From a virus: a DNA stretch of 64,000 nt. The notes beneath the pieces were generated by a model. It was not told the DNA's origin. It did no database searches and saw nothing but the letters and a program-made list of their open reading frames with translations. This document shows, piece after piece, positions 4,683 to 36,466 of this stretch. The stretch lies in the IMG/VR virus record IMGVR_UViG_3300037110_000161, positions 1 through 64,000 of that record. One strand, written 5' to 3'. Numbering within the stretch: position 1 is the first letter of the stretch; each line of letters starts with the position of its first letter. The translations under genes and the position numbers were made by a program.

Positions 4683-5884
4683 CGCAGTCCTCCCAAGTCG
4701 AAGTCAGCCACCTGCCGGAGTCCGGCAATGTCCACTTTGGCATAAACGCGCGTGGTGTCAGGATTGGCATGCCCGAGATGGTCGCCAATCTCTTTTAGGC
4801 ACAAGCCTTGGGCCAACAAGTGAGTAGCACAAGCATGGCGAAGGGTGTGCGGCCCGTAATGAGGGGTGGACACGCCGAGTCGCCGCAAACGAATGGCGAC
4901 GACGTGCCACAGCGCCGAGCGAAACGGCCGGATCGGGTGGAGGAGCGTCAAAAACACCTCGCGGTGGTCCGAGCGTGGCCGTACCTCCTTGAGATAACGA
5001 AGGACAGCATCACCCACAGGGCGGATCAACGGATAGGTCCGCGTCCGTCGCGTCTTGGAAGATACGACGGAAAGTAACTCCCGATCCCAGTCGAAATCGC
5101 TGAGCCGGAGATGTCTAACTTCGCCACCCCGGAGACCGTAGATAGCAAAGAGCATGAGGATAGCGCGGTCGCGGATTTCAACCGGCCGACTTCCTTCTGT
5201 CATTGCCAGTAGTCGTCGCACTTCGTCCCAGGATGGCCCAACAGGCAGCGATACCTGGGTGAAAGTGCGAGGACTCCTGATGGCTTGTGCCAGCCCTTTT
5301 CGACACCACTGGCGTTCCTCGGCATACCGAAGAAAGGCGCGCAAGTCACCTGCGAACGTCTGAACCGTTTTCCGTGCGTACCTGTGCTGGTTAATCATCT
5401 CCAAGAACGCCTTGTCAATCTGAGTAATGCTGATCCCGCGAAGGGAACCGTTCTGGCTACCAAGGTCGCCGAGGAATTGCCGCAGGAATGTAGAGCGATG
5501 TGTCACTGTTGAGCTTGAGAAGCCTCTTTCATCTCGCATATAGTTGGCGAAGGATTCGATCCTTCTTGCATAAGGATTGGCAGGCACTGATACTTGCTCC
5601 AGGCGGCCGAGGAATTGGAGCCATCGAGTGGCAAGGGAAATAAAGCCCGACCGCTTGTCGTTGGCCTTCTGCTTGATCTCGTCACGAGAGATGTTTTCGG
5701 CGGGACGGCGAGCCAGTCTGAGAGTGTCTGCGATCCTCAAAAGCCAATCAGCATCGGCTCGTAGCGTCTTGCGGGGCAGCCCACGCTCGGCGAGGTGGGC
5801 GAGAAAGCGGCGTCGCTCCTCCGGCAGCGGGCCAGCATTATGACGCGCCAGCGCGTGCGGTTGTGTGAACAATTGCTCGAACAT
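4679..5884 (-). CDS. Tyrosine recombinase (RIT first gene)
   Basis: GLRGGE, HTLRH, LGH and TRVY motifs; GGAGG RBS. Confidence 0.92.
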   Translation of the reverse strand: MFEQLFTQPHALARHNAGPLPEERRRFLAHLAERGLPRKTLRADADWLLRIADTLRLARRPAENISRDEIKQKANDKRSGFISLATRWLQFLGRLEQVSVPANPYARRIESFANYMRDERGFSSSTVTHRSTFLRQFLGDLGSQNGSLRGISITQIDKAFLEMINQHRYARKTVQTFAGDLRAFLRYAEERQWCRKGLAQAIRSPRTFTQVSLPVGPSWDEVRRLLAMTEGSRPVEIRDRAILMLFAIYGLRGGEVRHLRLSDFDWDRELLSVVSSKTRRTRTYPLIRPVGDAVLRYLKEVRPRSDHREVFLTLLHPIRPFRSALWHVVAIRLRRLGVSTPHYGPHTLRHACATHLLAQGLCLKEIGDHLGHANPDTTRVYAKVDIAGLRQVADFDLGGLR

Positions 5885-5996
5885 AGTCGAACCTCCGAAA
5901 GGGGTGGAAACAAGAGAGACATTTCGACTATGGTACGCAAATTATGTGGCGCAGGAAACGACCAGATCATCTATTTTTCGAGAGAAGGATTGGCTT

Positions 5997-6031
5997 CGCC
6001 ACATAACGTCCTTAGCCACATAAGACTCCTT
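5997..6031 (-). repeat. RIT right terminal inverted repeat
   Basis: CGCCACATAACGTCCTTAGCCACATAAGACTCCTT, inverted copy of 2643-2677. Confidence 0.92.
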
Positions 6032-6413
6032 CAAACTCGATGTCGATGGCCTGCAATTCGCCGCGAGGCATGGGGGCAATCGCCGGCTGGGCCGCGTCGG
6101 GCGTATCAAACTCGAACGGGTTGTTGGTGAAGTTCCCCGCCCACACCCGGCCGCTGTGATCGGTGGCCTGCACCTTGGAGGCGAAGTAGGCGAAGATAAA
6201 GGCCCGCAACTCCAACGCCTTATTGCGCGAGAGCCAGAAGGTCCACTTCAGCTTCCGCCGTCCGCCGCGGCGCTTGACGTAGGTGTAGCGGGTCCCGTCC
6301 ATTGCCAGCTTGCGGCTCACGGAGTCCAGGATCGCTTCGGCGTCGCTGAACTGCGGGCTTGGCAAAAGCGTCGTGGTCTGAAGCGCCGGATAGGGGGCCG
6401 AAAACTGGAACAT
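6012..6413 (-). CDS. Minor tail (distal-tail-like) protein; last codons supplied by the RIT end
   Basis: 133 aa; resembles the C-terminal domain of 6422-8053 (LPSPQF...W.G..TN...EFEG); position just upstream of the tail tip gene. Confidence 0.6.
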   Translation of the reverse strand: MFQFSAPYPALQTTTLLPSPQFSDAEAILDSVSRKLAMDGTRYTYVKRRGGRRKLKWTFWLSRNKALELRAFIFAYFASKVQATDHSGRVWAGNFTNNPFEFDTPDAAQPAIAPMPRGELQAIDIEFEGVLCG

Positions 6414-17958: not shown

Positions 17959-18228
17959 CTATCCTTCGGGGCACTTGTGTCGCAGGGGGCACTCGAAGCG
18001 GTCGCCCAGGGCCTTTTCCAGGCGTTCCATCATGGCCGTGTTCTGCGCGATTACGTCGGTGCAGCGCTCGACCATCGGCAGCAGCACGTCGCGCTGCTCG
18101 TCTTCCAGCTTCGTGATGCGGTCGCTCATTCGCAGTTCGCGGAGCCAGTTCTGCCAGAAGAAAAACGCCACCACGATCGCCAGTGGCCCGTACTGTTTCA
18201 GTAGCGGCCACAAGTAAGTCATGTCCAT
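17959..18228 (-). CDS. Small single-TM coiled-coil protein, holin-like
   Basis: GGAGG RBS; M-D-M start; QYGPLAIVVAFFFW TM segment followed by a coiled coil. Confidence 0.45.
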   Translation of the reverse strand: MDMTYLWPLLKQYGPLAIVVAFFFWQNWLRELRMSDRITKLEDEQRDVLLPMVERCTDVIAQNTAMMERLEKALGDRFECPLRHKCPEG

Positions 18229-18249
18229 GCCGACGCCTCCCTTCAAAGG

Positions 18250-18294: not shown

Positions 18295-19731
18295 TTAGCC
18301 CTGGAGCACGACGCAGAGGCGGTCGTCCAGGACGGCCACACCGGCGAGAATGTCCAGGTTGACCACCGTGCCGCCGTTGGCGATGCTGTACTGCATCGAA
18401 ACCCGCATGGCGATGTCGTTGTAGACACCGACGTGCGACAGCACGCCCATCGCGTTGTTGGGGATGGCCAGCGGACGGGTGACCAGGGCGATGGCGTTCC
18501 GATGGAAGGCCAAGTTCAGTGCGCCGGCCGGGCCGGGATAGCACTTGTCGCCGCTGGCGACAGCCTGCTCCAGCGGCCGATCCACGTAGATCGTCTGCTG
18601 GCCGGCGGCCGACAGGTAGGACTCGATCACGGTGTAGGTCACGCGGCCCGCACCGGTGCCGAAGGCGACCAACTGCCCGATTTGCGGGGCAGCGTTCCAG
18701 CCGGTCAAGACGATCCCTTCCACGTAGCCCGCGGCGTAGGCGGCACCTGCGACGCACGCCTTGTAGACCGTCAGCGGAGCGCTGGCAGCCGTGGCGTACT
18801 TGTTCACCTCGTTCAAGGTGATGGCCGTGGTGGCACCGGTCGCGGTGGTCGCGGCGGTGATGTACGTCGGCTGGTCATTTCCGGCCACGACGGCGAACTC
18901 GCCGATGTTCACGGCATAGTCGGCCAAGGTGACGGCCTGCGACCCGCCCGCGCCGGTGGCCAGGGCATTGGTGACGGTGCCCGTGGTGTCGGCATCAGCG
19001 TTGGCCAGCGAGGGGCTGTTGACGTTCTGGTCCATGTAGGTGTCGAAGCCCAGAATCCGTCCCAGGGTGGCGCTTTCCAACGCCGTACCGAAGTCGCCGC
19101 GCATCTGGGCGGCGATGAACAACTCGTTCTTCAACAGCGCGGTCTCGCTCACGGGAGCAAGCACCAGGTTGCGACCTTCCAGCGGGGCCTTGTTGATGTT
19201 CAACTGCTCGCGGGCTTCCAGCACGTAGTCCTTGCTGTTCTGGCAGGACAAGTTGAGCAACCGGCCGACGCGCCCGCTCGGGCCACCGTTGGCCAGGGCC
19301 GGGGTCAAAAAGGCATGGACGCGGCCCAGCACGGCGCGGTCCACCGAGCGGGCGATGGTCATCATGCCCGGCCGGAGGTAGATGTCCACCAGGTCTTGGA
19401 AGGACTTGCTGGCCTCGCCGTCCTTGATGGTGAAGCTGGTGTAGAACCACTGGTCCAGCGGCACCTTGACGTTCGTGGCCGAGGCATCTTGGTTCTGCAA
19501 GGGATCGCCGTCCGCCTTGCGGCGAATCTGGAACGTGCCGGGCCGGCGGGTGTTCACCACGTCGCCGAACTGCCGGATTTCGTTCTCGAAGTCGCGGTGG
19601 ACCAGGTTGGCGATCACCATGTTCTCTTGGAGGATCGCCAAGCCTTCCGAGGCCCACAGCTCCGGGATGAAGGCGGTGTTGTCGTTGTCGTAAGAGACGA
19701 CCACCGCGGGGGAGAGGTACAACGGATTCAT
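18295..19731 (-). CDS. Major capsid protein (P22 coat-like, HK97 fold with insertion domain)
   Basis: IPELWA..L..L...VHRDF...GDVVN..P; LGRILGFD.YMDQN; NLAFHRNAIALVTRPL; DIL.G C-terminus. Confidence 0.88.
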   Translation of the reverse strand: MNPLYLSPAVVVSYDNDNTAFIPELWASEGLAILQENMVIANLVHRDFENEIRQFGDVVNTRRPGTFQIRRKADGDPLQNQDASATNVKVPLDQWFYTSFTIKDGEASKSFQDLVDIYLRPGMMTIARSVDRAVLGRVHAFLTPALANGGPSGRVGRLLNLSCQNSKDYVLEAREQLNINKAPLEGRNLVLAPVSETALLKNELFIAAQMRGDFGTALESATLGRILGFDTYMDQNVNSPSLANADADTTGTVTNALATGAGGSQAVTLADYAVNIGEFAVVAGNDQPTYITAATTATGATTAITLNEVNKYATAASAPLTVYKACVAGAAYAAGYVEGIVLTGWNAAPQIGQLVAFGTGAGRVTYTVIESYLSAAGQQTIYVDRPLEQAVASGDKCYPGPAGALNLAFHRNAIALVTRPLAIPNNAMGVLSHVGVYNDIAMRVSMQYSIANGGTVVNLDILAGVAVLDDRLCVVLQG

Positions 19732-19764
19732 CGTTTTACTCCGTAGTTGTCAGTTCAAGAAACA

Positions 19765-19791
19765 CAAGAAGCCGCGACGTGCGGCTTCTTG
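19765..19791 (-). terminator. Hairpin between scaffold and capsid genes
   Basis: 11-bp stem CAAGAAGCCGC/GCGGCTTCTTG with a U-rich tail on the minus strand. Confidence 0.45.
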
Positions 19792-19816
19792 ACGACGAAC
19801 CCCTGATGAATGCGAA

Positions 19817-20704
19817 CTAGCGGCCGAGCTTGCCCTTGGGGGCACGCAATCCGAGCGCAGCAGGGTTCTTCGCTCGGAGTTCCATGTACTGCTCTTGAGT
19901 GAGCTTCCGCGGATCGAACTTGCCGCCAGTTCCCGACGCAAGGCCGCCGGTTGCCGCACTCGACCCGATGCCGCTGACGACGCCGGACTTAAAAAGGTTG
20001 CCGTAGATTTGCGGCAGGTCCTTCATCCGCTTCACAGCGCTGTCGGGCGTGTGGAGCGTGGCGGTCGGCTCTCCAGTATTGGGATCGGTGTCCGGGAAAT
20101 CGACCACGACCTTGAACTTCCCCGTGCCTTTGCCCGTCTTCTCGTCCGTGATCTCAATCAGACGGGTCATGGGACGCAACACGGACATGACCGTGTTGAC
20201 GTTGAACGCCTCGCCGCCGACGGCCGCGTCCTGCAAAGCCCGCTCCACCGTTCCTTCGCGGTAACGCTGCTCCCATTCCTTGGCGGCCTTCTCCGCATTG
20301 GTGATCTTGCCAGTGAGCTGCTCTTCGAGTTGCTTCTTCTCGTGAGCCAACTGCTGTTCCTTCGTCCGCGTTTCCTTCCGCAGGTCTTCCAACTGTTGGG
20401 CGAACTGCTCGCGCTCTTGGATGGTCAGGTTCTTCGACGCCGACACCTCCTCCAACATCTTCTCGACCCGCTGCACTTGTGCCTGATGCTTGCGCCGGTC
20501 ATCGGCCAGCATCCGGTTGACATCTTCCTGGGAGAAACGAGCATCGCCCGATCCGGTCCCGGCACCTGCTCCCGCGCCTGACGCAGCCGCGGCAACCGCG
20601 CCGGCATCGCCAGCACCCGCGCCGCTTCCGGCACCCGCGCTAGCACCCTCACCCTCGCCGTCGTAAGAAGCCAACACCGCACGCGACAGATAGAGAGGAT
20701 TCAT
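19817..20704 (-). CDS. Capsid scaffolding protein
   Basis: Gly/Ala low-complexity N-terminus, FSQEDVN motif, long coiled coil, GSG-rich C-terminus; directly upstream of the capsid gene. Confidence 0.8.
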   Translation of the reverse strand: MNPLYLSRAVLASYDGEGEGASAGAGSGAGAGDAGAVAAAASGAGAGAGTGSGDARFSQEDVNRMLADDRRKHQAQVQRVEKMLEEVSASKNLTIQEREQFAQQLEDLRKETRTKEQQLAHEKKQLEEQLTGKITNAEKAAKEWEQRYREGTVERALQDAAVGGEAFNVNTVMSVLRPMTRLIEITDEKTGKGTGKFKVVVDFPDTDPNTGEPTATLHTPDSAVKRMKDLPQIYGNLFKSGVVSGIGSSAATGGLASGTGGKFDPRKLTQEQYMELRAKNPAALGLRAPKGKLGR

Positions 20705-20826: not shown

Positions 20827-21396
20827 CTACGAAACTCGCGACAACCTCACCGCCTGGTCGTCGCGCAGGAAAGGCCTCAAGAGCGACCATGCCAGCGGAT
20901 TCGGCACGAGGTTGATAAGGTGTTCGATCGGCACCATGTTCCGCTCGTAGTGCGTGCGAACCTCGGCGTAGCCTTGGGCCGTGACGGAAAGGTTCTCCAA
21001 CTCCATCTGCGGGTCTACGCCGTCCAGCAGACTGTAGGCCAATTCGTACTCGGCCCGGCGGATGGCCTCGGGCACAATCGTGTCCGCGCCGCGGGGGAAC
21101 TCCAGCTCTTGGCTGGCATCCGCCGCACGCTCATCTTGCCGATATTGCTCCGCCTTCTCCCGATCGAATGTGCCATTGGTAGGATCACGCCAAGGTGGCA
21201 GCGTTTGTTGGCGAAAAAGCCAGACCGAATGCTTTTCCCCTTTGAAGGCCAAGTTGTCGATCAACCGCCGGGCCGCCAACAAAGCCTTTGGCCAATCCGC
21301 GTCGTCGGCGTCATTCCAGGCTTGCGAGTGCAGCCGGCCGGCAAAGTAGTCTTCCGCTTCACCAAGGTCGCCGTAATACGTTGCGTCAATCGCCAT
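20827..21396 (-). CDS. Head-tail connector / head completion protein
   Basis: Y..L.EA..YF..RL...W...KAL..A...ID.L.F.G and Q.LEFPR...VP..I..A..ELA motifs of head-tail adaptor families. Confidence 0.7.
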   Translation of the reverse strand: MAIDATYYGDLGEAEDYFAGRLHSQAWNDADDADWPKALLAARRLIDNLAFKGEKHSVWLFRQQTLPPWRDPTNGTFDREKAEQYRQDERAADASQELEFPRGADTIVPEAIRRAEYELAYSLLDGVDPQMELENLSVTAQGYAEVRTHYERNMVPIEHLINLVPNPLAWSLLRPFLRDDQAVRLSRVS

Positions 21397-22555
21397 GTGA
21401 TACCTGCTTCAGCCAGTCAAGCTGCGTTCGCTCTCGCTCCACGTACCAGCCGCCTTTCCAGAGGTCGGAAAGCATCTGGAAATACTCTTGGTAGCGCCAA
21501 CGCACGCGATCCAGGCTGTAGTTGGCCACAGACCGCCGATGAACATCGCTCCGGTCCAAGCGTGGCGCGTGACGCGCCGCAAAAAGGAAGTGGTCCAGCG
21601 TTCGACAGCGAAACCCGGTCCTGCCGTGCTCCACGGTCTCGGGAAACGCGCCCCAATCAGTCGTGATGGCCGGCGTGCCCGTCATTTGGGACTCAATCGC
21701 TACCGCGCCGAAGGGCTCGATATACGTGGTGGGGACAAAAGTGGCGATCGCGCCGCCGTAAAGCTCCGCCCGCTTCGCACCGGTGGCGAAGCCGACGTAC
21801 TCCAAGTTGTCGCCTTCGTAGACCTCGCCGTCCGCACAATGGATACGGTTGCCCTCGACCTTGACGCATCCCTGCCCGGCGATCTTCAGCTTGGCTCCCA
21901 GCCGCGTGCAGGTCTCGACGGCAATGTGGATGCCCTTCCGCTTGATGAGGCGGCCGAGGTAGAGATAGTAGCCGCCCCGGCCGCCGTCCGGCTGGAAGGG
22001 GTAGTCGGCCGGGTTCAAATAGTTGGGGATCACCACGTCGTAGAATTTGCCCTCCGGGTCGTAGCCGCCCTCCGCCCCCCAAATCTTGTGCATGTGGCTG
22101 TAAGACTCGAACACGCGGTACTTGGCGAAGGTGCCGTTGTAGCCGATGCCGTACTCTACCACCATCACGTCCGTACCCACGGCGTTGGCCAGAGGGATGT
22201 TAATGGTGCCCATGATAAGGCACACGAAGTCGCCCGGCCGCTTGCGCTTGTTGATCTCGGCCGCAGCCCGCTCATTGGTCAACTGCCAGTAGGGTGCCCG
22301 GCCGCTCCAATCAACCTCGTAGAGGGCATCGGGATTATACCTGCCAAAGAACCCCTCCTGCTCGGCCTTGGAGAGGATAGTCACGTCTTCGACGCAGCAA
22401 TCGGCGACTTCGCTCCCCTCCACGCCGTAGTGGAAGACCTCGTGGCCGAGGGATGCCATCATCTGGCAGAAGTGCAAGACCTTCATCGTGAAGGCGCAGG
22501 CCGAATGACTCATGTTCGTCTGCGTATGCGGCAAGGCAACCACGTGGAATCGCAT
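21386..22555 (-). CDS. Glycosyltransferase, GT-B fold (GT4-like)
   Basis: YLGRL..RKG, EPFGAVAIE (ExF...E) and GTPAITTDWGAFPETV motifs. Confidence 0.88.
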   Translation of the reverse strand: MRFHVVALPHTQTNMSHSACAFTMKVLHFCQMMASLGHEVFHYGVEGSEVADCCVEDVTILSKAEQEGFFGRYNPDALYEVDWSGRAPYWQLTNERAAAEINKRKRPGDFVCLIMGTINIPLANAVGTDVMVVEYGIGYNGTFAKYRVFESYSHMHKIWGAEGGYDPEGKFYDVVIPNYLNPADYPFQPDGGRGGYYLYLGRLIKRKGIHIAVETCTRLGAKLKIAGQGCVKVEGNRIHCADGEVYEGDNLEYVGFATGAKRAELYGGAIATFVPTTYIEPFGAVAIESQMTGTPAITTDWGAFPETVEHGRTGFRCRTLDHFLFAARHAPRLDRSDVHRRSVANYSLDRVRWRYQEYFQMLSDLWKGGWYVERERTQLDWLKQVSHGD

Positions 22556-22664
22556 GGCTTTCCCTCTAGGTTCCGAATTTCAGGTACAGGGTCTTCAGCG
22601 CCCAAATCGCGTCCTGCCACACCGTCGTGCCATTCACCCGGCGGTGCGGTCAGCTTGCTCTGGA

Positions 22665-24848
22665 CTAGCCCTTGACCTTCACGTAGGAAAAGTGCGCCAC
22701 CCAATTGACCGTGTACGTGGAAACCCCGCCGACCGAAAGTTGCAGGACCGAACTGTTGTTGACCAATCCCAAAACGTTGTAGTTGACGCCGTTGTAAGAG
22801 GTGTAAACCCAAACGGGTACCGCGAGCGTAACCACGCCGTTCAGGATATGAGCGTTTGCGCAACCGTAGCCGTGATAGTAGCCGATGTTCGACGTGCCGA
22901 TGATTCGGCCAACCAGATGGATGAAGATAGAAATCGTACTCGTAGTCTCGGCCGTAATGGGCAGTCCTGGTGCCAAATAGACGGTCGCCGCATTCACGGA
23001 TTGACCCTGGCAGACAATCTCTCCATGCACAGCGTCACCGGCAGTTGCAATCTGTCCGGTACATGCGACAGTCTGGCCATTCATGGTCGTTGTTGCGCCA
23101 GGACCAACTGCCACCCGCTGGGGATACAAGGTGGTGCCGTCAAACGTCAGGTTCGCGCTGTCGGTCACCGTGCTCGCCGATGCGGCATAGATGACTTGGC
23201 CTGCCGTCAGACCCGACAAGCCGGGTCCAGCCGGTCCCGTGGCTCCCGTCGCACCAACGCCGCCCGTGCCCCCAGTCGGCCCTGTGGCCCCCGTCGCGCC
23301 GACACCACCTGTTCCACCAGTAGGCCCCGTGGCTCCCGTCGCGCCGACGCCACCCGTACCACCGGTCGGTCCCGATGGTCCAGTCGCGCCGACACCGCCG
23401 GTGTTGCCTTGCGGGCCACTCGGTCCAGTCGGTCCCGTGGCCCCCGGCTGTCCGGCTAGTCCGATGTTCCAATTTGCGTAGGTTCCTGAGCCACCTGTGA
23501 GATCGGCAGTGAGGGTGAGTGTCCCGGCAGAATAGGTAGTCACCACTCCTTCCAACCAATTGGACGGAGTGGTCACATAAGAAACCCGCACTCGGTCCCC
23601 TGGCAGGTATGCCAGGCCAGATTGCGTTGCAAAACCAATGCTTCCAGTTCCAATCGTGTGGGAAGTTGTGGAGGTGGCGGTATAGCCAGCTCCCGTCGCT
23701 CCCGTTGGTCCGGTAGCACCTGTCGCACCAACGGCCCCGCTGCTGCCAGCAGTACCCTGCGGCCCACTTGGGCCGCTCGGTCCAGTCGCGCCCGTGGTTC
23801 CAACGCCGCTCGGCCCGGTCGGTCCCGTAGCACCTGTCGCGCCTACGGCACCGTTGCTGCCGGCCGTTCCTTGCGGCCCGCTGGGGCCGCTCGGTCCAGT
23901 CGCGCCCGTAGTTCCAATGCCGGTCGGCCCGGTCGGTCCCGTAGCGCCTGTCGCGCCTGTCGCGCCTACGGCCCCGTCATTTCCAGCAGCGCCTTGCGGC
24001 CCGCTGGGGCCACTCGGCCCAGTCGCGCCCGTGGTTCCAATGCCAGTCGCTCCGGTCGGGCCTGTAGCGCCTGTCGCGCCCACGGCCCCGTTGCCCCCAG
24101 CAGTACCTTGCGGCCCGCTGGGGCCACTCGGCCCCGTCGCGCCCGTGGTTCCAATGCCAGTTGGCCCGGTCGGTCCCGTAGCGCCTGTCGCGCCAACAGC
24201 CCCGTCATTTCCAGCAGCGCCCTGCGGCCCGCTGGGGCCACTCGGCCCAGTCGCGCCCGTGGTTCCAACGCCAGTCGGCCCGGTCGGTCCCGTAGCGCCT
24301 GTCGCGCCAACAGCACCATCACTTCCAGCAGCGCCTTGCGGCCCGCCCGGGCCACTCGCCCCAGTCGCGCCCGTGGTTCCAATGCCAGTCGGCCCGGTCG
24401 GTCCCGTAGCGCCCGTCGCGCCAGCGGCCCCATCGTTACCGGCAGTTCCTTGCGGCCCGCTGGGGCCACTCGGCCCCGTTGCGCCCGTGGTTCCAATGCC
24501 AGTCGGCCCGGTCGGTCCCGTAGCACCCGTCGCGCCAACAGCACCGTCATTTCCCGCAGCGCCCTGCGGCCCGCTGGGGCCACTCGGCCCCGTTGCGCCC
24601 GTGGTTCCAATGCCAGTCGGCCCGGTCGGTCCCGTAGCACCCGTCGCGCCAACAGCACCAGCGCTTCCCGCTGGCCCTGTCGCCCCCGTTGGGCCTGTTG
24701 CGCCGACCGGTCCCGTCGCGCCTGTCGCGCCCGTTGGTCCTGTCGCGCCATTGCCCCCGCTTCCGCCAGCACCCGGCCCGCTGGGGCCTGTCGGACCTGT
24801 AGGCCCAGTAGGGCCTTGCAATCCTGGATTCTCGTAATCGAATTGCAT
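22665..24848 (-). CDS. Collagen-like fibre protein (long)
   Basis: Extensive Gly-X-Thr/Ser triplets, an internal globular domain and a C-terminal globular domain; GAGGT RBS before ATG 24848. Confidence 0.85.
23710..24660. repeat. About 8 tandem 114-bp (38-aa) units within the collagen gene
   Basis: GTRGTTCCAA recurs at 23794, 23908, 24031, 24145, 24259, 24373, 24487 and 24601 (period 114, one unit 123). Confidence 0.85.
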
Positions 24849-24858
24849 CACAGCGACC

Positions 24859-25653
24859 TCACGGTGCAAAAGCGTACCAACTCAAGCTCCCGCTCGCATC
24901 GGACTTCAAGCACCAAAACTGATTGACACCAACGGGTGCGGGAGGCAAGCCCACGCTCGGACCTGTTGCACCCGTAGCGCCCTTCTCGCCGACAGGCCCA
25001 CGGGGGCCTGTTGCCCCGGTCGCACCTGTGGGCCCGGGATCGCCCTGGTCGCCCGCTGCTCCTTGTAGCCCTTGTGGACCGGACGGACCGCAGGGACCGG
25101 TCGAGCCAGCCGGGCCGGTGGCACCGGTCGGGCCACCGACCGGACCGGTCGCACCTGTTGCGCCTGTAGGACCAGACGGGCCAGTCGCACCCGTTGGGCC
25201 GCCGGATGGCCCACTAGGGCCCGTTGCACCCGTGGGGCCTGTGGCACCGACCGCCCCATCACTTCCCACTGGACCTGTCGCGCCCGTTGGTCCTGTTGCG
25301 CCGACCGCCCCATCGCTTCCAGCGGGTCCTGTCGCACCAACGGCCCCAGCGTCTCCTGTGGGGCCTGTTGCTCCGGCAGGACCAGTCGCACCGACAGGAC
25401 CGGTGGCACCTGTTGCCCCAACTCCGTCATTGCCCGGTGCGCCACTTGGCCCAGCGGGTCCGGTGGCACCCACAGGTCCCGTGGCACCCACAGGGCCAGT
25501 GGCCCCCTGCGCGCCGGTGGGACCCGTCGCGCCGAGGCGACCCTGCGGCCCTGTTGCGCCGACTGGGCCGGTTGGACCCGTGGGGCCGCCCGATGGACCA
25601 CTCGGCCCTTGGGGGCCCGTTGCACCGGTCGGATCAGCATAGATGAATGCCAC
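24859..25653 (-). CDS. Collagen-like protein (short)
   Basis: Gly-X-Y triplets over most of the 264 aa with a short C-terminal knob. Confidence 0.85.
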
Positions 25654-25981: not shown

Positions 25982-27874
25982 CTATTCCTCTTGATTGTGC
26001 TTGCCCTGGCCGCGCACGGGCGTCTTGGTCGTGTCGTTGAGAGTGGTGTCGCGGCTGGCGGCCTTCTCCACCTTGCCCGCGCCGGGGTTTGCCGAGAGAT
26101 CGTGGACGCCACGCGCGCCGGCGTCGCTGTTCATCTGCCCGACCTCGTTCAAGGCCGTGGATTCGGAGCCAGCCAGTTTCTCGGTAGCCGGATCGCGGCT
26201 GGTGGCCCCGGTGGTCTCGGTGCCCAATTGGCCGCCTCTTTGCTGGGCCTGCAAAATCCGAATCGCCCTGGCCGCATGGTCCGCGCGGGCCTGGATGTGC
26301 TCGTCGTCGTTGAAGCCCAGGGCCATTGAGCCGGTCTTCTCGCCGCACAGACCGGCCTCGACCGCCGCAATGATGGTCGTGGGGTCGCTGGTGGCGTAGG
26401 GGGCCTTGTCGATCTCATCGAAGATGGCTTGCATGTCGCTGACGCTGATCTTGCCTCCCAAAAGCGCCAAGACGATGTTCTTTGCCAGCTCGCGTTTAAC
26501 CTTCTGCCCGGGCACGGCGTACATCAACTTGACCAGGCTTTGGGCTTCCGCAATCCGATCGGAATCCGTCTTCAGGCTGTAGCGGTCGGGATATTTGATT
26601 GTGGCGACGTTCCGCTGCGAAACGTTTCGCTCTTCGTAGGCCGCCCAGAACTCGGCAATCTGCCGCTCGGCCGCCTCCAGGACCAAACCGATGTAGGACA
26701 GACCGGCTTCAAGCCCTTGGTTGTCCATCGACTTCGATTCCGCCGTGGCCCGGTTCGCCGTGTCTGCGACGGCCAGATGGATCAGCTTGCGGATGCCGTC
26801 CTCCAGCTTGGCTTGCAGGTCCATCGACGCCTTTAACGGTTCGCTCGACGGGTTGATGAACGAGGGAGCGTTCATCCCCTTGTCGTAGGTCCGGCCCTGA
26901 GTCACTCCGACCCGGATGTCATTGTCGGCACCAGGCTGTCCGCCCGTCGTCGCCGTCCCGTCTTCGCCCACGGAACTCTTTAAGTGGCCGCCCGTGGCCC
27001 GCTGGTCCTTTTGCTCGATATAGAAGGGGAAGTTGGCCTTGAGGGCGTAATTCACGTCGCCCGAGCCCAGGTTCAAAAGCGCGATCTGGTGCTCCACCAC
27101 GTCCTTAATCATCGAGTCGCCGATGTCCAGCAACACGAAAGGGATGCGCGTCAACTCCAACTCCACGGCCCCGGCCGGGTTCCCCTCACGGTCGATGGGA
27201 TTTCCGGCGGTGTCCAGAAATTGCAGGTTGACCAGACCCGTGTCGCGGTCGATCCACAACATGCGGAACCGCTCGACGGTCGTAGTTGGCAGGTAGGTCC
27301 GCTGGTCGAAGTTGAGAACTACGTCGCGGAGCAGAATCGCCTGGAACGTGGACGGCTCGTCCGGCTTGGAGCAAGTCCAGCTCAGGATGTCTTCAATGGG
27401 GTAGAAGTACAGGTACGGCCGATAATTCTTCACGTCCGCCAAGGTGGCGTTGCCCGGGACCAGTGGGGAATCGACGTACACGCCCACGCGGCCCATAATG
27501 AGCAACTCGGTCAGTACCTTGATGCCCAAGAAGCCGTTCATGGTGTTGCCGCGGAGATCGACGCCCAGGTCCAAGCCGTTGACCGCCCGCTGATACGCAC
27601 TGCTGCCGTCGCGCCGGCTCGTGTCCTTGAGCCGCTGGAAGATGGCATTGCGGACATCGTTGATAGCCACCCGAGCAAACGATGGGATCGGCGTCATATC
27701 CAGCCGCGCCTGGAACTCCGGTTCATCCTCCCGCGACGAGAACTTTTTGAGGTACAGCTTGCGGAAGTATTCGCCGCCGTTGTAGCAAATCCGCCATTTG
27801 CGCCAGTCCAGCAGGCTGCTGAGGTAACTCGGGTGCCTGACTTCGACGATGTTGGTGATGAACTCAACAACCAA
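25982..27874 (-). CDS. Portal protein
   Basis: Follows the terminase; HP.Y.....W.......GG N-terminus, GRVGVYVD and IPFV motifs; 630 aa. Confidence 0.85.
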   Translation of the reverse strand: MVVEFITNIVEVRHPSYLSSLLDWRKWRICYNGGEYFRKLYLKKFSSREDEPEFQARLDMTPIPSFARVAINDVRNAIFQRLKDTSRRDGSSAYQRAVNGLDLGVDLRGNTMNGFLGIKVLTELLIMGRVGVYVDSPLVPGNATLADVKNYRPYLYFYPIEDILSWTCSKPDEPSTFQAILLRDVVLNFDQRTYLPTTTVERFRMLWIDRDTGLVNLQFLDTAGNPIDREGNPAGAVELELTRIPFVLLDIGDSMIKDVVEHQIALLNLGSGDVNYALKANFPFYIEQKDQRATGGHLKSSVGEDGTATTGGQPGADNDIRVGVTQGRTYDKGMNAPSFINPSSEPLKASMDLQAKLEDGIRKLIHLAVADTANRATAESKSMDNQGLEAGLSYIGLVLEAAERQIAEFWAAYEERNVSQRNVATIKYPDRYSLKTDSDRIAEAQSLVKLMYAVPGQKVKRELAKNIVLALLGGKISVSDMQAIFDEIDKAPYATSDPTTIIAAVEAGLCGEKTGSMALGFNDDEHIQARADHAARAIRILQAQQRGGQLGTETTGATSRDPATEKLAGSESTALNEVGQMNSDAGARGVHDLSANPGAGKVEKAASRDTTLNDTTKTPVRGQGKHNQEE

Positions 27875-27886: not shown

Positions 27887-29581
27887 TTAGAGAACCTTGC
27901 TGATGCTGGTGCCGCCGGACGATGGCACGAACGTCAAAGCGATGTCGGCGTAGACCAAGGCATGGGCGTAGTGGTCAGGTCCGGTGTTCACGTAGGTGGC
28001 CTCCGGGTTGCCATGTTCATCTTTCTCATAGGTCCGCACGAGGTTCTTGACGTGCTCGCGGAACTCCAGCGAAATATCGGCCGGCAGCAATATCCGTGAA
28101 GGATTCATCTTGAAGCGGCCCAGCGTGCAACTCAGCCAGTTGGTGCGGTCTACCGTCGCCATAGGGGCACCGGTGTCTTCCTCGGTGATCGCTATTTCCT
28201 TGGCCGCGATTCCTCGCCGATAACGGCAGAGGTGGACATAGCCGTAAAACTTGCGGGCAAACCGCCGCGCGTCGTTGATGTTCGGATCGGCGTCCACCAC
28301 GCAGGCGAGGACTTGCCATTCCCGCATCAACTGGCCGACGTAGTTCCAGTCCTCCTCCCGGAACTTGCCGTACCAGAGCAGCTTGCCGACCGCTGCCAGA
28401 TTGATGTCCACACGGCGGTCGCCGTCAAACAGCCACTCCACTACGGTGATGTAGCCGGTCTTGCCCTGGTCCACACCCATCGTGATGCAGCGCCGACCGC
28501 CGATCCCCGGCCGCACGTCGCCGGTAATATGCTTCCGCACGGCGGCGTCCAGCATCGCGTCGGAGACCTGGGCACCTTCGCCGATGAATGGCAGGCCCAG
28601 CTTCGAGTTATGGAACTCTTTGTTGGCCGCCTCGTCGCCAAGGCCACGGAAGTGGGCAATGACGATCTCACCGGGAGAGACCGTAGACGAATAAAGCTGA
28701 TTGGCGTAAAAGCCACGGGACTCCTGCGGGCTGACTTGCAGGTTCGTCGGCTGCCACAAGCCCCCGGCCAGGAACTCCGGCTTGGCTCGATGGTCCAGCC
28801 TGTGTTTGCAGTCCTTGCACTTGATGAACGACTCGTGGCAGCGGGGATCGCTGACCGTCTCGCCGATGATCTCGACGCAATCGGGCCAGACGAACTCCGT
28901 CCATCGGCCGCAACAGGGGCATTTGAACTGGAAGTGTTCCTGCGTGCTGGTGAGGAACAGCTTGTGGATGCCGTACTTCGGCACGGTGGGCGTCGAGATG
29001 GCCAGGACATGCTTCTCGATCTGCCCGGACAAACGCTCCAAGGCCAACCAGATGGCCTTCGTGTCCATTTCGTCCAGCTCGTCCAGGACCAGTTCCGAAA
29101 CCGGAATGGACTTCAGGTTCGAGTCACCACGGCTTCCGCGGATGTACAGGACGTTGGTTCCCGTGGACTTCAGGCCCACGGTGTTGGTGTCAACGAACAG
29201 TTGCTTGAGATACGAGCTGAGCTTCAGTGCGGTGGCGAAGCGGGCCTTGGAAAAGTCGCTCGCATTCAACGTCGTGGGAAGCACGTACAGCACGTCACGC
29301 TTCAACTGGTCAAGCACAAAGAATGCCCGATTGATCCCAGCTTCAGTGATGCCCAACTGAGCCGCCTTCATCGCCACGGTGAAGGCCGCCTTGCTGTTGT
29401 GAATCTCGCGGCACCAGGGGTGATGTGCGAAGCCGTAGGGACCGGGGAAGGGTGCTCCCATCACCCTGCGATGCTCAGCCCATCGGCTACACGACTGTAA
29501 GGACGAGTTCTCCAAGCCGCGTGTGACGCCCTCTTGGAAGGCGTCCCACAGCTCGCCGCGGCTAGCGCGCTCTTCGACCAT
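27887..29581 (-). CDS. Terminase large subunit, lambda GpA-like
   Basis: KAAQLGITE Walker A variant, LVLDELDE Walker B, STPT, CPCC...CKDC Zn ribbon, MGVDQG and DHYAHA nuclease motifs. Confidence 0.9.
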   Translation of the reverse strand: MVEERASRGELWDAFQEGVTRGLENSSLQSCSRWAEHRRVMGAPFPGPYGFAHHPWCREIHNSKAAFTVAMKAAQLGITEAGINRAFFVLDQLKRDVLYVLPTTLNASDFSKARFATALKLSSYLKQLFVDTNTVGLKSTGTNVLYIRGSRGDSNLKSIPVSELVLDELDEMDTKAIWLALERLSGQIEKHVLAISTPTVPKYGIHKLFLTSTQEHFQFKCPCCGRWTEFVWPDCVEIIGETVSDPRCHESFIKCKDCKHRLDHRAKPEFLAGGLWQPTNLQVSPQESRGFYANQLYSSTVSPGEIVIAHFRGLGDEAANKEFHNSKLGLPFIGEGAQVSDAMLDAAVRKHITGDVRPGIGGRRCITMGVDQGKTGYITVVEWLFDGDRRVDINLAAVGKLLWYGKFREEDWNYVGQLMREWQVLACVVDADPNINDARRFARKFYGYVHLCRYRRGIAAKEIAITEEDTGAPMATVDRTNWLSCTLGRFKMNPSRILLPADISLEFREHVKNLVRTYEKDEHGNPEATYVNTGPDHYAHALVYADIALTFVPSSGGTSISKVL

Positions 29582-29675: not shown

Positions 29676-30095
29676 TCAGCCGGCCGCTACGGGCTCGTCG
29701 TCTGCGTCCATTTCTGACTCAACGGCCGGGGCCGGTTCACTGGTCGGAGCAGGCTCGGGTTCCACAACCGGCTCCGGTTCGTGGGCCGGTGCAACCGGGG
29801 CCGGCTCAACAACCGGAGGAGGTTCGATGGCCGGAGCTGGAGCAGACTCAAGCTTGTCGGCCGGCTTCCGCTTGGCGGACCTGAGCAAGGCCGGGCCGCA
29901 GCCGAAGGGCGGCCGGTGGTCTGGCCCCAGGAAGCACGAGTACACGTCCACCTCGTCTTCCTGAACGCCGTCCGGCAGGGGGATGTCCACCCAGTAGTGG
30001 CTGTCGTCTACCGTCGTTGTGACTTCGCCCTTCGGCGTGTAGAGGATGATGCTCACCAGCGGCAAACTGCTATTGTGCGGGACGGGCACTCGCAT
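29676..30095 (-). CDS. Hypothetical protein with Pro/Glu-rich tail
   Basis: GAGG RBS; 139 aa. Confidence 0.6.
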   Translation of the reverse strand: MRVPVPHNSSLPLVSIILYTPKGEVTTTVDDSHYWVDIPLPDGVQEDEVDVYSCFLGPDHRPPFGCGPALLRSAKRKPADKLESAPAPAIEPPPVVEPAPVAPAHEPEPVVEPEPAPTSEPAPAVESEMDADDEPVAAG

Positions 30096-30336
30096 TGTTT
30101 TCCTCGCAGGCTTGGGCGACTTCCAACAGGCGTGACGCCAGTCGTCGAAGATGACTGGGATCGCCGCCCGGTGCGCCGAGAAGCGTGTAAACGTGCATCA
30201 TTTCCACGGCCGCGTTGCAGGTGACCAGCGCGTGGTGCCAGAGGCGTTTGCCGTCTTCGAGCATCAGCCCGGAGACCGGCGGCAGCTTTGGTTTCACCGG
30301 CGTCGGCGGGCAGTTCGCACACCGTCGCTCGGCCAT
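30070..30336 (-). CDS. Hypothetical protein
   Basis: MAERRCANC start coupled (TGATG) to the upstream stop; 88 aa. Confidence 0.55.
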   Translation of the reverse strand: MAERRCANCPPTPVKPKLPPVSGLMLEDGKRLWHHALVTCNAAVEMMHVYTLLGAPGGDPSHLRRLASRLLEVAQACEENNASARPAQ

Positions 30337-30761
30337 CACGACCTCCCGAAGACTTCGTTCATCAGCCGAACGGCCTCGTCGATGTCCTGCGTCTGCACAG
30401 TATCGTGACCACAGCGGATCACGAAGTAGACCGGGATGCTCGTGATGCCATAGTACCGCTTGGTCATTTCCGAGCACTTGTCGATGTTGATCCGTTCGAC
30501 ATCCACGCCCATCTGCTCCAAGGCGTCTAGCTGCGGTTGGCCGGCTTGGCAAGCAGGGCACCAATCGGCACCAAAGGCAATGATCTTCGGCCGGCAACAC
30601 TGGCCGTGTTGCTTGTCCGGTTGCGCCTCGTGGCGTTGGTCGGGCGTCGGCCAAGGGGCCACCGGCGTCGGAGGCTCACAGCCGGCGATCAAAATGGTCG
30701 TCAAGATCACAGCCAGCGGCACCAGCACGGATTTGCAAAAAGATCGCGTCTTCATGTTCAC
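30336..30761 (-). CDS. Thioredoxin-family lipoprotein
   Basis: Lipobox LIAGC, WCPAC active site, SIP cis-Pro loop. Confidence 0.8.
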   Translation of the reverse strand: MNMKTRSFCKSVLVPLAVILTTILIAGCEPPTPVAPWPTPDQRHEAQPDKQHGQCCRPKIIAFGADWCPACQAGQPQLDALEQMGVDVERINIDKCSEMTKRYYGITSIPVYFVIRCGHDTVQTQDIDEAVRLMNEVFGRS

Positions 30762-30788
30762 GGCGAATCTCCTGGCACGGCAAGACTG

Positions 30789-30917
30789 CGGTTCTCGAAA
30801 GGCTCGCGGCGCATCCGGGAGCCCTTGGAGAACCGGCCCCGGCCGGTTACGACGCCGGCCGGGGCACGGGAGTGGGAAGACCTGCCAAAGTGCGCTTGCG
30901 TCAGTGGCGTGGCAGGT
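30789..30917 (-). other. Three consecutive hairpins in an intergenic region (structured RNA candidate)
   Basis: Stems at 30789-30835, 30836-30865 and 30880-30917; the first extends via G-U pairs on the minus strand. Confidence 0.4.
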
Positions 30918-30930
30918 TGCTCGGACGCGA

Positions 30931-31365
30931 TTAGGACTTGGCCGAAGCAGAGGCGGGGGCCGGAGCCGCGGAAGCGGGAGCGTCGGCCGGGGCAGCCGCT
31001 CCCTCGATCACGGCGATCTTCGCCTTCACCAGGGCCATGCCCTCGGGCGTGGCGAGCTTCTTGTCCAGCACGTTCTCATAGGTGGATTCCAGTTCCTTCT
31101 CGATGGCGTCGTTGCCGGACTCCACCAACTTGGAGAGATCGTGAATCTTTTCGAGCAGATCGTTCACGTCGCCCACGGCAAAGTCTTCGAGCAGGGCCGG
31201 CAACAGCTTGAGGCCGACCGCCCGCAGCTTGATGGCCAGGACTTGAGCATCCCGCTTCTTGGTCGTCAGCGCTTCGTTCTTGCCGAAGAGCCACTTGCCG
31301 ATCTCACGACCAACGAGCACGCACGCCACGGCGGCCAGAATCCAAATCACAACAATGGGGTTCAT
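30931..31365 (-). CDS. N-terminally anchored membrane protein with helical/coiled-coil body
   Basis: MNPIVVIWILAAVACVLVG TM segment; GGAG RBS. Confidence 0.65.
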   Translation of the reverse strand: MNPIVVIWILAAVACVLVGREIGKWLFGKNEALTTKKRDAQVLAIKLRAVGLKLLPALLEDFAVGDVNDLLEKIHDLSKLVESGNDAIEKELESTYENVLDKKLATPEGMALVKAKIAVIEGAAAPADAPASAAPAPASASAKS

Positions 31366-31439
31366 CTTTCTTCTCCGCGTTTGGGAATGCCGCAGGCGCG
31401 GCGTAGCAGTCACCGGACAAAGGCAGTCGCACTAAGGAA

Positions 31440-32141
31440 TCAACAGTGCGTGGCCGGCAGCAACTTCTCTTTGAGTTTCTTACCGTAGCCGAGGCAAAAG
31501 CCGACCAGGAAACCAGCGCCACCGATCGGGACCACAAGCCAACCAGGCAGTGCGGACTCGGGCTCCGCCAGATCGGGGTTCACCACCTCGGGCTTGCCGC
31601 CGTCGTTAATCGGCTGCGGCTCGGGATCGTGATTGGGCTGTGGCTGAGGTTTCGGACGTTCCAGATTGTTGAGGCGGTTGTCGGTATCCCGCCGCCACGG
31701 CAAGATAGGTCGCAGCCCTTGGGCCTTGCCGACCGCCCCCGCCAGGGCCCCGTTCAGCCCGGCCGCCGTCATGGGAAGGTCCTTCCCCGCCGCCTCGTAG
31801 ACCACTACCGCGTCGGGTTGCTGCATTCGCACGGTGGGTAGCCCCGCGACGTTCGGAGCATACCGCTCCTTGTAGATCGCCGTGTCACTCGTCACAGGGC
31901 AGAATTGCACCTGGTCCTTCAGTTTGGTCAGATTTGGATTGTTGTCGAACCAGTTCAGGATTTCGTTGTAGCGGGCGTCGTTGGAGTCTCCGACGACACT
32001 GATGTACCACTTGCCCTGGTCGTTGGGCAGGTTGACCACGCGCTCTTCGGCCAGGACGCCGTTCACTGTGTCGGCGAAACAGGGGACTACGACCGCGAAG
32101 AGGGCGACCGCACACATCGCGCATAGCAACAGCTTGTTCAT
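31440..32141 (-). CDS. Exported thioredoxin-like protein with Pro-rich linker and C-terminal TM
   Basis: Signal peptide, GLPT cis-Pro-like motif without CxxC, PKPQPQP linker, C-terminal hydrophobic helix followed by KKLK. Confidence 0.6.
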   Translation of the reverse strand: MNKLLLCAMCAVALFAVVVPCFADTVNGVLAEERVVNLPNDQGKWYISVVGDSNDARYNEILNWFDNNPNLTKLKDQVQFCPVTSDTAIYKERYAPNVAGLPTVRMQQPDAVVVYEAAGKDLPMTAAGLNGALAGAVGKAQGLRPILPWRRDTDNRLNNLERPKPQPQPNHDPEPQPINDGGKPEVVNPDLAEPESALPGWLVVPIGGAGFLVGFCLGYGKKLKEKLLPATHC

Positions 32142-32171
32142 TGCTTTCCTCTCGTGAAACAGACTTGGGCG

Positions 32172-32741
32172 TTATTGTGGAAGCGGAGCCGCCGGAGTGT
32201 AGATCGGCGTTATGGCCCACCCGTCGCTGGCCTGCCATTCAGCAATCAGCGTCTCGCGCGGGACCCAGATGTACTGCTCGACGGCGTTGTCGTCCAAGAG
32301 GGCGGCCCACTTTTCATCCAGGTGGACCAAGGCAACCATGTGCTGGCCGCCCCGAATCGTAATGCCGCAGCCGCGTCGCGTGCGGCACGCCCACTCCAAG
32401 AACTTCACGTCGCCGTTGGTGACGGAGGCGTAGCGCACGCCGGCCTCGTCGAGCCGCTGGGCCATGTCGTCCGGCCACTCGCCGTCGCCGCAGTTCTGTC
32501 GGACCCAATTGGCAGTGCGGTAGCGGCCCTGCCAACGCAACAGGGAAACCATTGTGGCCCAGGTGCAAGAACCTTGACCACCCTCTCCCCACCAATTGCT
32601 CTGCCGCAGGGCGAGCGGCAAGTTGACCGTGGGACGCTCCACCACAGGGCGTCCCTTCCGCACCGGCGGGGCCACGATGCCGGGCGACTCGCAACCGGCA
32701 ACCACCACCAGCAACAACACTGCCAGGACAATCCGCTTCAT
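32172..32741 (-). CDS. Lipoprotein with papain-like (C39-like) peptidase domain
   Basis: Lipobox VAGC; GSCTWA catalytic Cys, QHMVAL His, LLDDN Asp. Confidence 0.7.
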   Translation of the reverse strand: MKRIVLAVLLLVVVAGCESPGIVAPPVRKGRPVVERPTVNLPLALRQSNWWGEGGQGSCTWATMVSLLRWQGRYRTANWVRQNCGDGEWPDDMAQRLDEAGVRYASVTNGDVKFLEWACRTRRGCGITIRGGQHMVALVHLDEKWAALLDDNAVEQYIWVPRETLIAEWQASDGWAITPIYTPAAPLPQ

Positions 32742-33400
32742 CGCAGCCTCCGTGGTTTGAAGACCAGTTCCTTGTACTGAAGCATCCGGCACAGGTGGTT
32801 GGGGTTCCAGCGGGCGGCGCTCACCGTTGGCATGAGGCCGAGGTCCGCATAGGCGGCGGCCACCCACTCCGAACAAAAGATCATGTGCAGGTCTTGTTCG
32901 CGGAACAACGATTCCACAAAAGACAACCCGACGCCGGCCGCGCGAAACGCCCCCATCGCGTCATAAGGCGTGTGGATCGTTGCCATCACAAAGTCGCTCA
33001 GCCGGCTGTCTTCATGCGCATAGAGCGGCCGATAGAGTGGATAGTGCCAGACTTTGCCTGGGTAAGCCTGGAGAATCTTGGTGAGGTCGTGGGCCTGGGT
33101 GCCATTGAAGCATTCGCCCGAGAGTTCGCAGGGCATGTTCTCCAGCGTCGTGCTCTCGAACAACAGCAACCGGCCGTCTGCGGCGTGGGCCATGACCCCG
33201 ACGTGGCTGATGCCCCAAAACGGAATCCCGTAGGTGCCAAGATTGATAAGCGCACTGATCCAACTGTTGCCCGAGAAGCCGATCACGTCCCCAGCCTTGA
33301 GGTCATTCGGGTTGACGATCAGGCCCAGGTCGTACCGCGACAACGCTTTCAGCGTTGGTGAGGTGGGCGGTTGGCGGCACATTGACAGGAAGGGGAACAT
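32738..33400 (-). CDS. Permuted papain-like NlpC/P60 enzyme (YiiX/YebB-like)
   Basis: KAGDVI, SHVGV (His), TPYD and FCSEWVAAAY (Cys) in permuted order; GAGGT RBS before ATG 33400. Confidence 0.8.
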   Translation of the reverse strand: MFPFLSMCRQPPTSPTLKALSRYDLGLIVNPNDLKAGDVIGFSGNSWISALINLGTYGIPFWGISHVGVMAHAADGRLLLFESTTLENMPCELSGECFNGTQAHDLTKILQAYPGKVWHYPLYRPLYAHEDSRLSDFVMATIHTPYDAMGAFRAAGVGLSFVESLFREQDLHMIFCSEWVAAAYADLGLMPTVSAARWNPNHLCRMLQYKELVFKPRRLR

Positions 33401-33572
33401 GTTGCACCTCAGGTCCGGGGATCCGCGCCATGCAGATGTTGTCGATGTACTTGGACGTGCCGTTGCGGCGAATGCCGAGGCGTTTTTGCTCGTCGGCCCA
33501 GCAGTCCTCGCAGCGGTCCTCGCCGCCATAGGTGACAATGCGACCGCACTCACACCAGACGGGCAATTGCAT
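33303..33572 (-). CDS. Small Cys-rich (CxC...CxxC) protein
   Basis: ATG coupled to the upstream stop (TAATG), GGAG RBS; 3' part overlaps the next gene. Confidence 0.45.
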   Translation of the reverse strand: MQLPVWCECGRIVTYGGEDRCEDCWADEQKRLGIRRNGTSKYIDNICMARIPGPEVQHVPLPVNVPPTAHLTNAESVVAVRPGPDRQPE

Positions 33573-34141: not shown

Positions 34142-34288
34142 GATTCGCCTCAACCGCGGCCACGAGAGTTCCTACGCTATTACCAGATACCGAAAACGGT
34201 GTTTTTTTCGGACAGAACTCGAAATCTCTCTGCCACGCGCTCTAATACCCGTCCCTGGTTGCTGATTCAACCGGTGAAGGAGATCAAC

Positions 34289-36429: not shown

Positions 36430-36466
36430 GGTTGTTTCTAACTTCGGCTGTGGGGCGAAGGTGCCG

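Follow-up and report, generated by a model that had tools for sequence, protein, structure and literature searches.

We identify a short N-terminal leader that is shared by the major capsid (coat) protein and the scaffolding protein of a phage, IMG/VR record IMGVR_UViG_3300037110_000161, and that changes in step on both proteins across a large family of its relatives. The window analysed here is the first 64 kb of this 73,270-bp single-contig viral record, which is 61% G+C. The capsid open reading frame (ORF) begins MNPLYLSPAVVVSYDNDN and the scaffold, read from the ATG at 20704(-), begins MNPLYLSRAVLASYDGEGEG. Eleven of these 15 residues are identical, and both 14-residue leaders follow the pattern MNPLYLS.AV..SY, then D; in the capsid the predicted boundary falls within SY/DNDN. 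An initial annotation, covering 19687-20704 (the end of the capsid leader through the scaffold start codon), had described this shared peptide and its differing codons, and both descriptions are confirmed: the genes open with ATG AAT CCG TTG TAC CTC TCC (capsid) and ATG AAT CCT CTC TAT CTG TCG (scaffold), and 33 of 45 leader nucleotides are identical. Loose regular expressions for the motif match only the two gene starts in the six frames of the window, and across the whole genome a profile of 73 leaders matches these two ORFs and nothing else of note (E 3.8e-08 and 4.8e-08, with 0.15 for the next best). The match between capsid and scaffold is beyond chance. In the scaffold a low-complexity tether of about 40 residues joins the leader to the conserved RFSQEDVN/coiled-coil part of the protein, and the scaffolds of relatives carry a linker of variable length and composition at the same place.

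The format recalls that of phage 80alpha, a parallel already drawn in the initial annotation and one that holds for the presence of the same short peptide on both capsid and scaffold. 80alpha carries a 13-14-residue peptide with an aromatic end on both proteins and encodes no prohead protease (PMC5744158, PMC9405229). Capsid and scaffold each lose 13-14 N-terminal residues to the host protease Prp (MEROPS C108), which cleaves between F and A (PMC5744158), and the motif copies an extension of the host ribosomal protein L27 (PMC5744158, PMC9405229). According to the former report, the N-terminal sequence of the 80alpha scaffold is required for assembly, its cleavage is dispensable, and association with a common chaperone is proposed (PMC5744158). 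Both leaders described here are likewise shared and 14 residues long, and they end in Tyr where the 80alpha peptide ends in Phe. The sequences themselves are unrelated (LYLS..V.[C/S][F/Y] here, ..NLQFF followed by A in 80alpha).

Homologous capsid and scaffold N-termini were aligned across relatives, and the leader is conserved in pairs. Among close-clade viral contigs (the best 80 of 187 relatives found with the capsid, at 54-99% identity), both leaders are present at almost all loci that contain the starts of the two genes. Searching one genome per species with the capsid yielded 21 loci; the closest loci in cellular genomes are prophages in Planctomycetota assemblies (Pirellulales, Thermoguttaceae, Planctomycetaceae), again with both leaders, and three other host labels (Anaerolinea, Saccharibacteria, an archaeon) may be binning errors. 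Over all collected loci, including four long related records, the leader profile gave 162 matches at E<0.01, comprising 89 capsids, 67 scaffolds and 6 fragments of those genes, with no third protein. For pairwise comparison, 59 close-clade loci with both leaders were reduced to 45 unique pairs; loci with the scaffold or capsid start off the contig were left out. The capsid consensus is M-N-x-L-Y-L-S-x-[A/P]-x-[V/T]-A-C-[Y/F], followed by [A/D/E]-N, and the scaffold consensus is x-x-x-L-Y-L-[S/A]-R-[P/A]-x-[V/L]-[A/S]-C-F, followed by [E/D]-G-[E/D]-G. Two anchors stand out, Leu-Tyr at -11/-10 and a small residue, Cys/Ser and Phe/Tyr at -3 to -1; the last residue (P1) is Phe or Tyr in 45/45 capsids and 45/45 scaffolds and the preceding one (P2) is Cys in 40/45 and 38/45, a conservation that is partly by construction because the rows were picked by the leader profile.

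Between these anchors, the leaders of one genome resemble each other more than those of different genomes. At the variable positions P9-P3, the two leaders of a genome agree in 3.24 of 7 residues on average; shuffled pairings give 2.24, and 0 of 10,000 shuffles reached the observed value. Subclade words are shared by both proteins (..RARLVCF; ..[Q/R]P[F/W]..C[Y/F]; ..P.VACF), and in one locus (L068) Arg replaces the Phe/Tyr in both leaders.

The same relationship extends to far more divergent viruses. A search with the capsid finds 2,559 cluster representatives at E<=0.001. A scan with an alignment of distant representatives found 527 relatives, of which 80 contigs were kept; their capsids are 38-48% identical to that of this phage, and G+C is 37-53% in the three retrieved as full records. 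Here the capsid and the product of the gene immediately upstream start with matched, lineage-specific words (SYQIKWIG/SYQIKWVG, IQLTYC/IQLTYC, FRPYY/FRPYY, LSVF/LSVF, LLAY/ILAY), and a tether that is acidic or rich in Gly or Pro mostly comes after the word in the scaffold. The last leader residue varies by lineage (mostly F/Y, also G, H and C) and is usually the same in capsid and scaffold. Across 59 unique distant pairs, capsid P8-P1 reaches a mean best ungapped BLOSUM62 score of 22.9 within the N-terminus of its cognate scaffold and of 8.7 with non-cognate scaffolds; for 21 of the 59 leaders the cognate partner scores highest of all 59, with close relatives competing for first place. The leader is thus widespread and ancient in this coat family. 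Among 50,697 phage records, this capsid matched 24 at 27-31% identity and a distant representative matched 62, of which the 25 listed are at 27-29%. The leader was not found on cultured phages in this set: the five matching relatives examined are leaderless, since their capsid genes start 2-9 codons before the match.

Codon comparisons bear out the earlier claim that conservation lies at the protein level. In the close clade, 130 of 335 identical residues are encoded by the same codon (0.39; shuffled pairings, 0.37), and in distant pairs 81 of 189, where 74 are expected from codon usage. Codon identity at the level of shuffled pairings and of codon usage indicates that gene conversion does not maintain the match. 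It is conceivable that the likeness has no function in the protein and reflects recent duplication, gene conversion or a translation-initiation signal in the mRNA, as the leaders sit at the start codons of adjacent, highly expressed late genes and share most of their nucleotides. We regard this as extremely improbable, given the codon figures and the persistence of the peptide match at about 40% capsid identity while the DNA differs. Our data show instead that protein-level selection keeps the leader similar in capsid and scaffold.

The leader also behaves as a modular N-terminal peptide, confined to coat and scaffold. Capsid family profiles (Pfam, PHROG) begin at residues 18-22, after the leader. 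In an AlphaFold2 (AF2) model of the coat built from 148 sequences (mean predicted local distance difference test score (pLDDT) 91.9, predicted template modelling score 0.88), residues 1-20 have a pLDDT of about 52-56, falling below 50 at residues 12-16, and residues 1-17 have no secondary structure; the N-arm helix begins at 18. The top Foldseek matches of the model are the coat proteins of Sf6, CUS-3 and P22 (E 1e-14 to 1e-11). Some capsids have residues inserted just past the leader junction, and the spacer length varies. The 150 best of the 2,559 capsid-matching representatives included 131 of at least 420 aa, 125 of which offered the conserved Pro-Glu-x-Trp of the N-arm as an anchor. At least 8 residues (median 14) precede the N-arm start [A/D]-N-[D/S/N] in 109 of these 125, while 5 have 2-7 leader residues and 11 have none; leader ends in this count assume a fixed 8-residue spacing to the conserved Pro, so that counts of the last residue are rough. 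Most of the 11 leaderless capsids begin M-[A/G/P]-N, with Met occupying the last position of the leader. At eight of nine leaderless capsid loci (L091, L093, L094, L096, L098-L101), the upstream coiled-coil-like protein also lacks a leader-type start; for a tenth locus, L204, no anchor was obtained.

Separately, the capsid gene of four relatives (L037:3106-3989, L045:3312-3972, L048:3330-3966 and L049:4065-4713) is interrupted by a group I intron that scores 50-76 bits with Rfam RF00028, which reaches or exceeds the gathering score. The intron site lies just past the leader and the N-arm start, near the conserved IPEL/W codons.

We tentatively propose, at a likelihood just short of even, that the leader is a tethered docking tag that both proteins present to one recognition site, with or without later clipping. 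Coat and scaffold would each offer a flexibly tethered 14-residue peptide to this common site during procapsid assembly. The site would lie on a structural partner encoded by the phage, most simply the coat/scaffold lattice itself, because it appears to co-evolve with the phage and because only packaging and structural genes (TerS, TerL, portal, adaptor-like, scaffold, capsid and head-completion/tail genes) are held in common with three distant terminal-repeat genomes that keep matched leaders. The scaffold N-terminus would, in effect, imitate that of the coat. Scaffolds of P22-like phages contact the coat through their C-terminus; the tag would give the scaffold a second handle on coat subunits besides this contact. 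At or before maturation the tag would be displaced. It might also be clipped at the junction between [F/Y] and [D/E/A], a prospect that we rate as almost evenly balanced; cleavage is plausible because conservation is strongest at the junction, where leaderless proteins also begin, and because 80alpha offers a precedent. If cleavage occurs, the agent would be a host protease.

A bolder version of this proposal, which we consider unlikely, is that the leader is a self-recognition code in which the words bind one another or a single pocket of the coat lattice. If so, the word would diversify by lineage and the scaffold of a phage would assemble only its own coat, which would shield it against cross-assembly with co-resident prophages and capsid-hijacking satellites. 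Such a code would constitute a new, portable specificity module for HK97-fold shells that is independent of proteases.

Several points weigh against a docking tag. No binding site for the leader was identified, and the AF2 model of the coat monomer leaves the leader undocked. The shuffle tests ignore the shared ancestry of the genomes. The leaders could also co-vary because the protease or chaperone comes from the host and differs between host lineages, just as Prp motifs follow host L27 (PMC9405229). The concentration of conservation at the junction (Cys, Phe/Tyr, then an acidic residue or Ala), together with leaderless proteins that start there, is what would be expected of a scissile site. 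One leaderless capsid, L090 (which starts MPNNLVALIPQIW), lies beside a scaffold that keeps a leader-like start, so that the two leaders are not always lost jointly. Finally, the CheckV completeness of this genome is 60%, and a relevant gene may therefore lie beyond the contig ends. In the L090 scaffold (about 5200-6100), the leader-like hydrophobic word is followed by a Gly-rich tether.

The host side offers no counterpart of the Prp/L27 system. Prp (PF04327) has no match at E<=10 in the whole phage genome, is absent from 10 distant leader-bearing phage records, and does not exceed the cut-off in any of five prophage-bearing Planctomycetota genomes (best E 0.08); in all five, host L27 starts MAHKKGQGSS, without an extension. 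In the same five genomes, the leader profile finds the prophage capsid and scaffold only (next best E>1.5). A search of 301 sampled Planctomycetota genomes returned, besides the same prophage pair, 10 single chance-level matches (E 0.006-0.046), all internal to proteins or in short frames that look non-coding, and none at a protein N-terminus. The initial annotation was therefore right that the signal differs from the Prp motif, and we show that the leader is unrelated to Prp/L27; mimicry of a host substrate by the leader finds no support in these genomes.

A host protease other than Prp might nonetheless remove the leader as a propeptide, cutting after Phe/Tyr 14 in both proteins. The length and aromatic end of the peptide removed in 80alpha (PMC5744158) agree with such a cut. 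So do the conservation peak at P1 and P2 and the low AF2 confidence at residues 12-16. Cleavage would moreover yield the same N-terminus as that of the leaderless homologues, in which Met replaces P1, and searches of the genome and of distant records for protease families found no phage protease. Against this stand the lack of Prp and of an L27 extension in the five host genomes and the confinement of the leader to phage proteins in the Planctomycetota genomes searched. Many hosts would each need a suitable enzyme, because the last residue differs by lineage and the family genomes span 37-61% G+C. The closest solved coats, moreover, come from Sf6, CUS-3 and P22, phages that assemble without proteolysis. 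We consider a different host protease possible but doubtful, and hold a docking tag to be the better account.

Two further ideas about the leader were rejected. Its lipobox-like ..V-A-C ending suggested a lipoprotein signal, but the peptide is too short, lacks a basic start and has Arg/Pro in the middle; in addition, Ser stands in place of Cys in both proteins here, and Ala or Val in some relatives. Self-cleavage through a Cys/Ser nucleophile or an Asn is countered by the change of Cys to Ala/Val in the capsids L056, L057 and L085 and by scaffolds that have no Asn at the junction.

The initial annotation had also stated that the head module encodes no prohead protease, and as far as tested this is the case. 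Pfam scans of 49 ORFs found no protease family above cut-off, with ORFs shorter than about 90 aa scanned only in part, and the S78 (PF04586), ClpP (PF00574) and S77 (PF03420) families have no match at E<=10 in the 73-kb genome; S78 and ClpP are likewise absent from the 10 distant records. An adaptor-like gene fills the position between portal and scaffold that is often taken by a prohead protease; it has a homologue in 62 of 65 distant loci, which lies just upstream of the scaffold in the 25 listed. Its AF2 model is all helices (pLDDT 85.9) and has no match in the Protein Data Bank (PDB) by Foldseek, its alignment profile matches no solved structure at E<0.1, and its best likenesses in BFVD are DnaT-like phage proteins, plus weak gp6/adaptor rows. 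The all-helix model, the lack of a PDB match and the DnaT-like/adaptor-type BFVD matches lead us to reject a hidden protease in this gene.

Cleavage might alternatively be performed by one of the papain-like enzymes of the phage, as the initial annotation had proposed for those at 32-33 kb. Candidates are a C92/YiiX-like protein, a C39-like lipoprotein and, outside the window, the product of a second C39-like gene. C39 peptidases in general remove N-terminal leaders. Atlas look-alikes of the first two proteins, which serve as leads only, are C92- and C39-type peptidases. His and Cys are invariant in 14/14 sequences of the C92-like family, and the C92/C39 pair occurs in 4 of 5 long close-clade records. 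The third gene has weak, sub-cut-off C39-like Pfam matches and no signal peptide; two of the five host genomes carry it, at a distance of about 50-60 kb from the capsid of the prophage. The C92-like profile matched no solved structure, and its only PHROG match, phrog_1128 (with an enoyl-CoA hydratase-like name), was taken as uninformative.

The context of these genes points elsewhere. The C39-like protein at 32 kb should be exported, because it carries a lipoprotein signal (with a weak Pfam LPAM_1 match). It belongs with the C92-like protein, a 233-aa secreted/membrane protein, a 160-aa membrane protein and a thioredoxin-like lipoprotein to a cassette at 29676-33553 (-), just before TerL, that looks like a lysis or envelope cassette. 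This cassette is an insertion between TerS and TerL, restricted to the close clade and missing from the three distant terminal-repeat genomes with matched leaders. The C92 profile found nothing credible in the 10 distant leader-bearing records, four of which have terminal repeats (one match at E 0.006 over 34 positions), and none of the five long related viral records yielded the third gene. The capsid leaders also contain no Gly-Gly site. We conclude that a papain-like processing enzyme is very unlikely, and that the lipoprotein signal and the absence of the cassette from distant leader-bearing genomes leave the proposal for the pair at 32-33 kb unsupported.

It is also conceivable that the host factor recruited by the leader is non-proteolytic, for example a chaperone that folds or co-localises both proteins. 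The 80alpha authors suggest a common chaperone (PMC5744158), and the leader is hydrophobic, tethered and predicted to be unstructured. General chaperones, however, need no two-anchor motif with a near-fixed Cys-Phe/Tyr end, and lineage words matched within genomes fit a co-evolving partner better than a conserved host machine. We therefore consider recruitment of a chaperone quite unlikely and retain a docking tag as the favoured interpretation.

The leader differs from each of the systems that it resembles. Unlike the 80alpha motif, it occurs in phages of Planctomycetota with short L27 and no Prp over cut-off, is found on no host protein in the genomes searched, and consists of lineage-specific words that co-vary within the genome. 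With P22, Sf6 and CUS-3 the phage has in common the coat fold, PF11651, and a portal-scaffold-coat order without a protease gene. It differs from them in the adaptor-like gene between portal and scaffold and in the extra leader ahead of the N-arm, matched on the scaffold, in the close family and in most distant representatives. We know of no comparable leader in P22-like phages. The capsid targeting sequences of T4 and the propeptides or delta domains removed by S77/S78 proteases likewise sit at N-termini, guide proteins into the assembling prohead and are lost later; here the leader is on coat and scaffold only, not on other head proteins, and no S77, S78 or ClpP-type protease was found in the genome. 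Double-glycine C39 systems likewise combine a short N-terminal leader with C39-like genes such as this phage has, but the absence of Gly-Gly from the capsid leader, the lipoprotein signal and the absence of the cassette from distant genomes with leaders set the present case apart.

New here are a shared capsid/scaffold peptide with a different sequence logic, the lack of a host template, and the co-varying words. Full-text searches, whose scope did not extend to subscription journals, found no paper describing this leader, only the 80alpha/Prp literature. 80alpha is the textbook case of a shared capsid/scaffold N-terminal peptide and is explained by mimicry of a ribosomal protein; the role of the peptide is unclear even there (PMC5744158). 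The same architecture now appears in a large uncultured phage family with P22-like coats, whose hosts are without the Prp/L27 system, which makes the general role of such peptides a testable question. The concerted change of the leader in both proteins suggests that head assembly includes an unstudied recognition step. A docking code, if the tag proves to be one, could serve to steer cargo or to control the assembly of HK97-fold shells.

The genes discussed above belong to a minus-strand late operon that runs from TerL and portal through collagen-like/GT1 genes, the adaptor-like gene, scaffold and capsid to head-completion and tail genes (Table 1). Scaffold homologues sit directly upstream of the capsid gene in related loci.

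Table 1. Coordinates of the late genes, leaders and papain-like candidates (window positions unless stated otherwise).
Feature	Position	Strand	Size, matches and remarks
TerL	27887-29581	-	PF05876/PF20454
Portal	25982-27874	-	phrog_145
Two collagen-like Gly-x-y proteins and GT1 glycosyltransferase	21386-25653	-	264 and 734 aa (collagen-like)
Adaptor-like protein	20827-21396	-	189 aa, all-alpha; phrog_477 at 8.5e-13; PF20557 at 26.2 bits, just below cut-off 27
Scaffolding protein	19817-20704	-	295 aa from ATG at 20704; phrog_206 at 8.4e-09
Scaffold leader, residues 1-14	20663-20704	-	MNPLYLSRAVLASY; predicted boundary Y14/D15
Scaffold tether, residues 15-55	20540-20662	-	Gly/Ala/acid-rich, low complexity; from translation
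Major capsid (coat) protein	18295-19731	-	478 aa, P22/Sf6-like HK97 fold; phrog_283 at 2e-50; PF11651 P22_CoatProtein at 2.2e-22, 79.9 bits (cut-off 24)
Capsid leader, residues 1-14	19690-19731	-	MNPLYLSPAVVVSY; predicted boundary Y14/D15
TerS	33572-34153
C92/YiiX-like papain-fold protein	32738-33400		atlas look-alikes (leads only)
C39-like lipoprotein	32172-32741		atlas look-alikes (leads only)
Second C39-like protein	genome 70154-70750 (L132:8154-8750)		outside window; weak Pfam matches below cut-off

Other parts of the genome vary among relatives. The GT1/collagen-like block between portal and adaptor-like gene is not constant: of four relatives one has the glycosyltransferase, and the collagen-like genes are all but missing. 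As a guess, their products may serve as head fibres or decoration. The capsid gene is followed directly, at 17959-18246 (-), by a gene for a 95-aa protein with an N-terminal hydrophobic segment, kept in 4/4 close relatives (50-71% identity) and in only 14 of 65 distant loci; a membrane protein in a head module is unusual. The tail module includes a 1227-aa tape measure-type protein and looks siphovirus-like. Three adjacent tyrosine recombinase genes (348, 310 and 401 aa; PF00589) at 2741-5884 (-), absent in four long relatives, form a trio that resembles 'recombinase in trio' elements. A variable block at 35101-44276, missing in four relatives, encodes a Ser/Thr protein kinase, ThyX, a fusion of an HhH-GPD glycosylase with a C-5 cytosine methylase, and an ORC/Cdc6-like protein that matches PF24389 at 7.6e-91.

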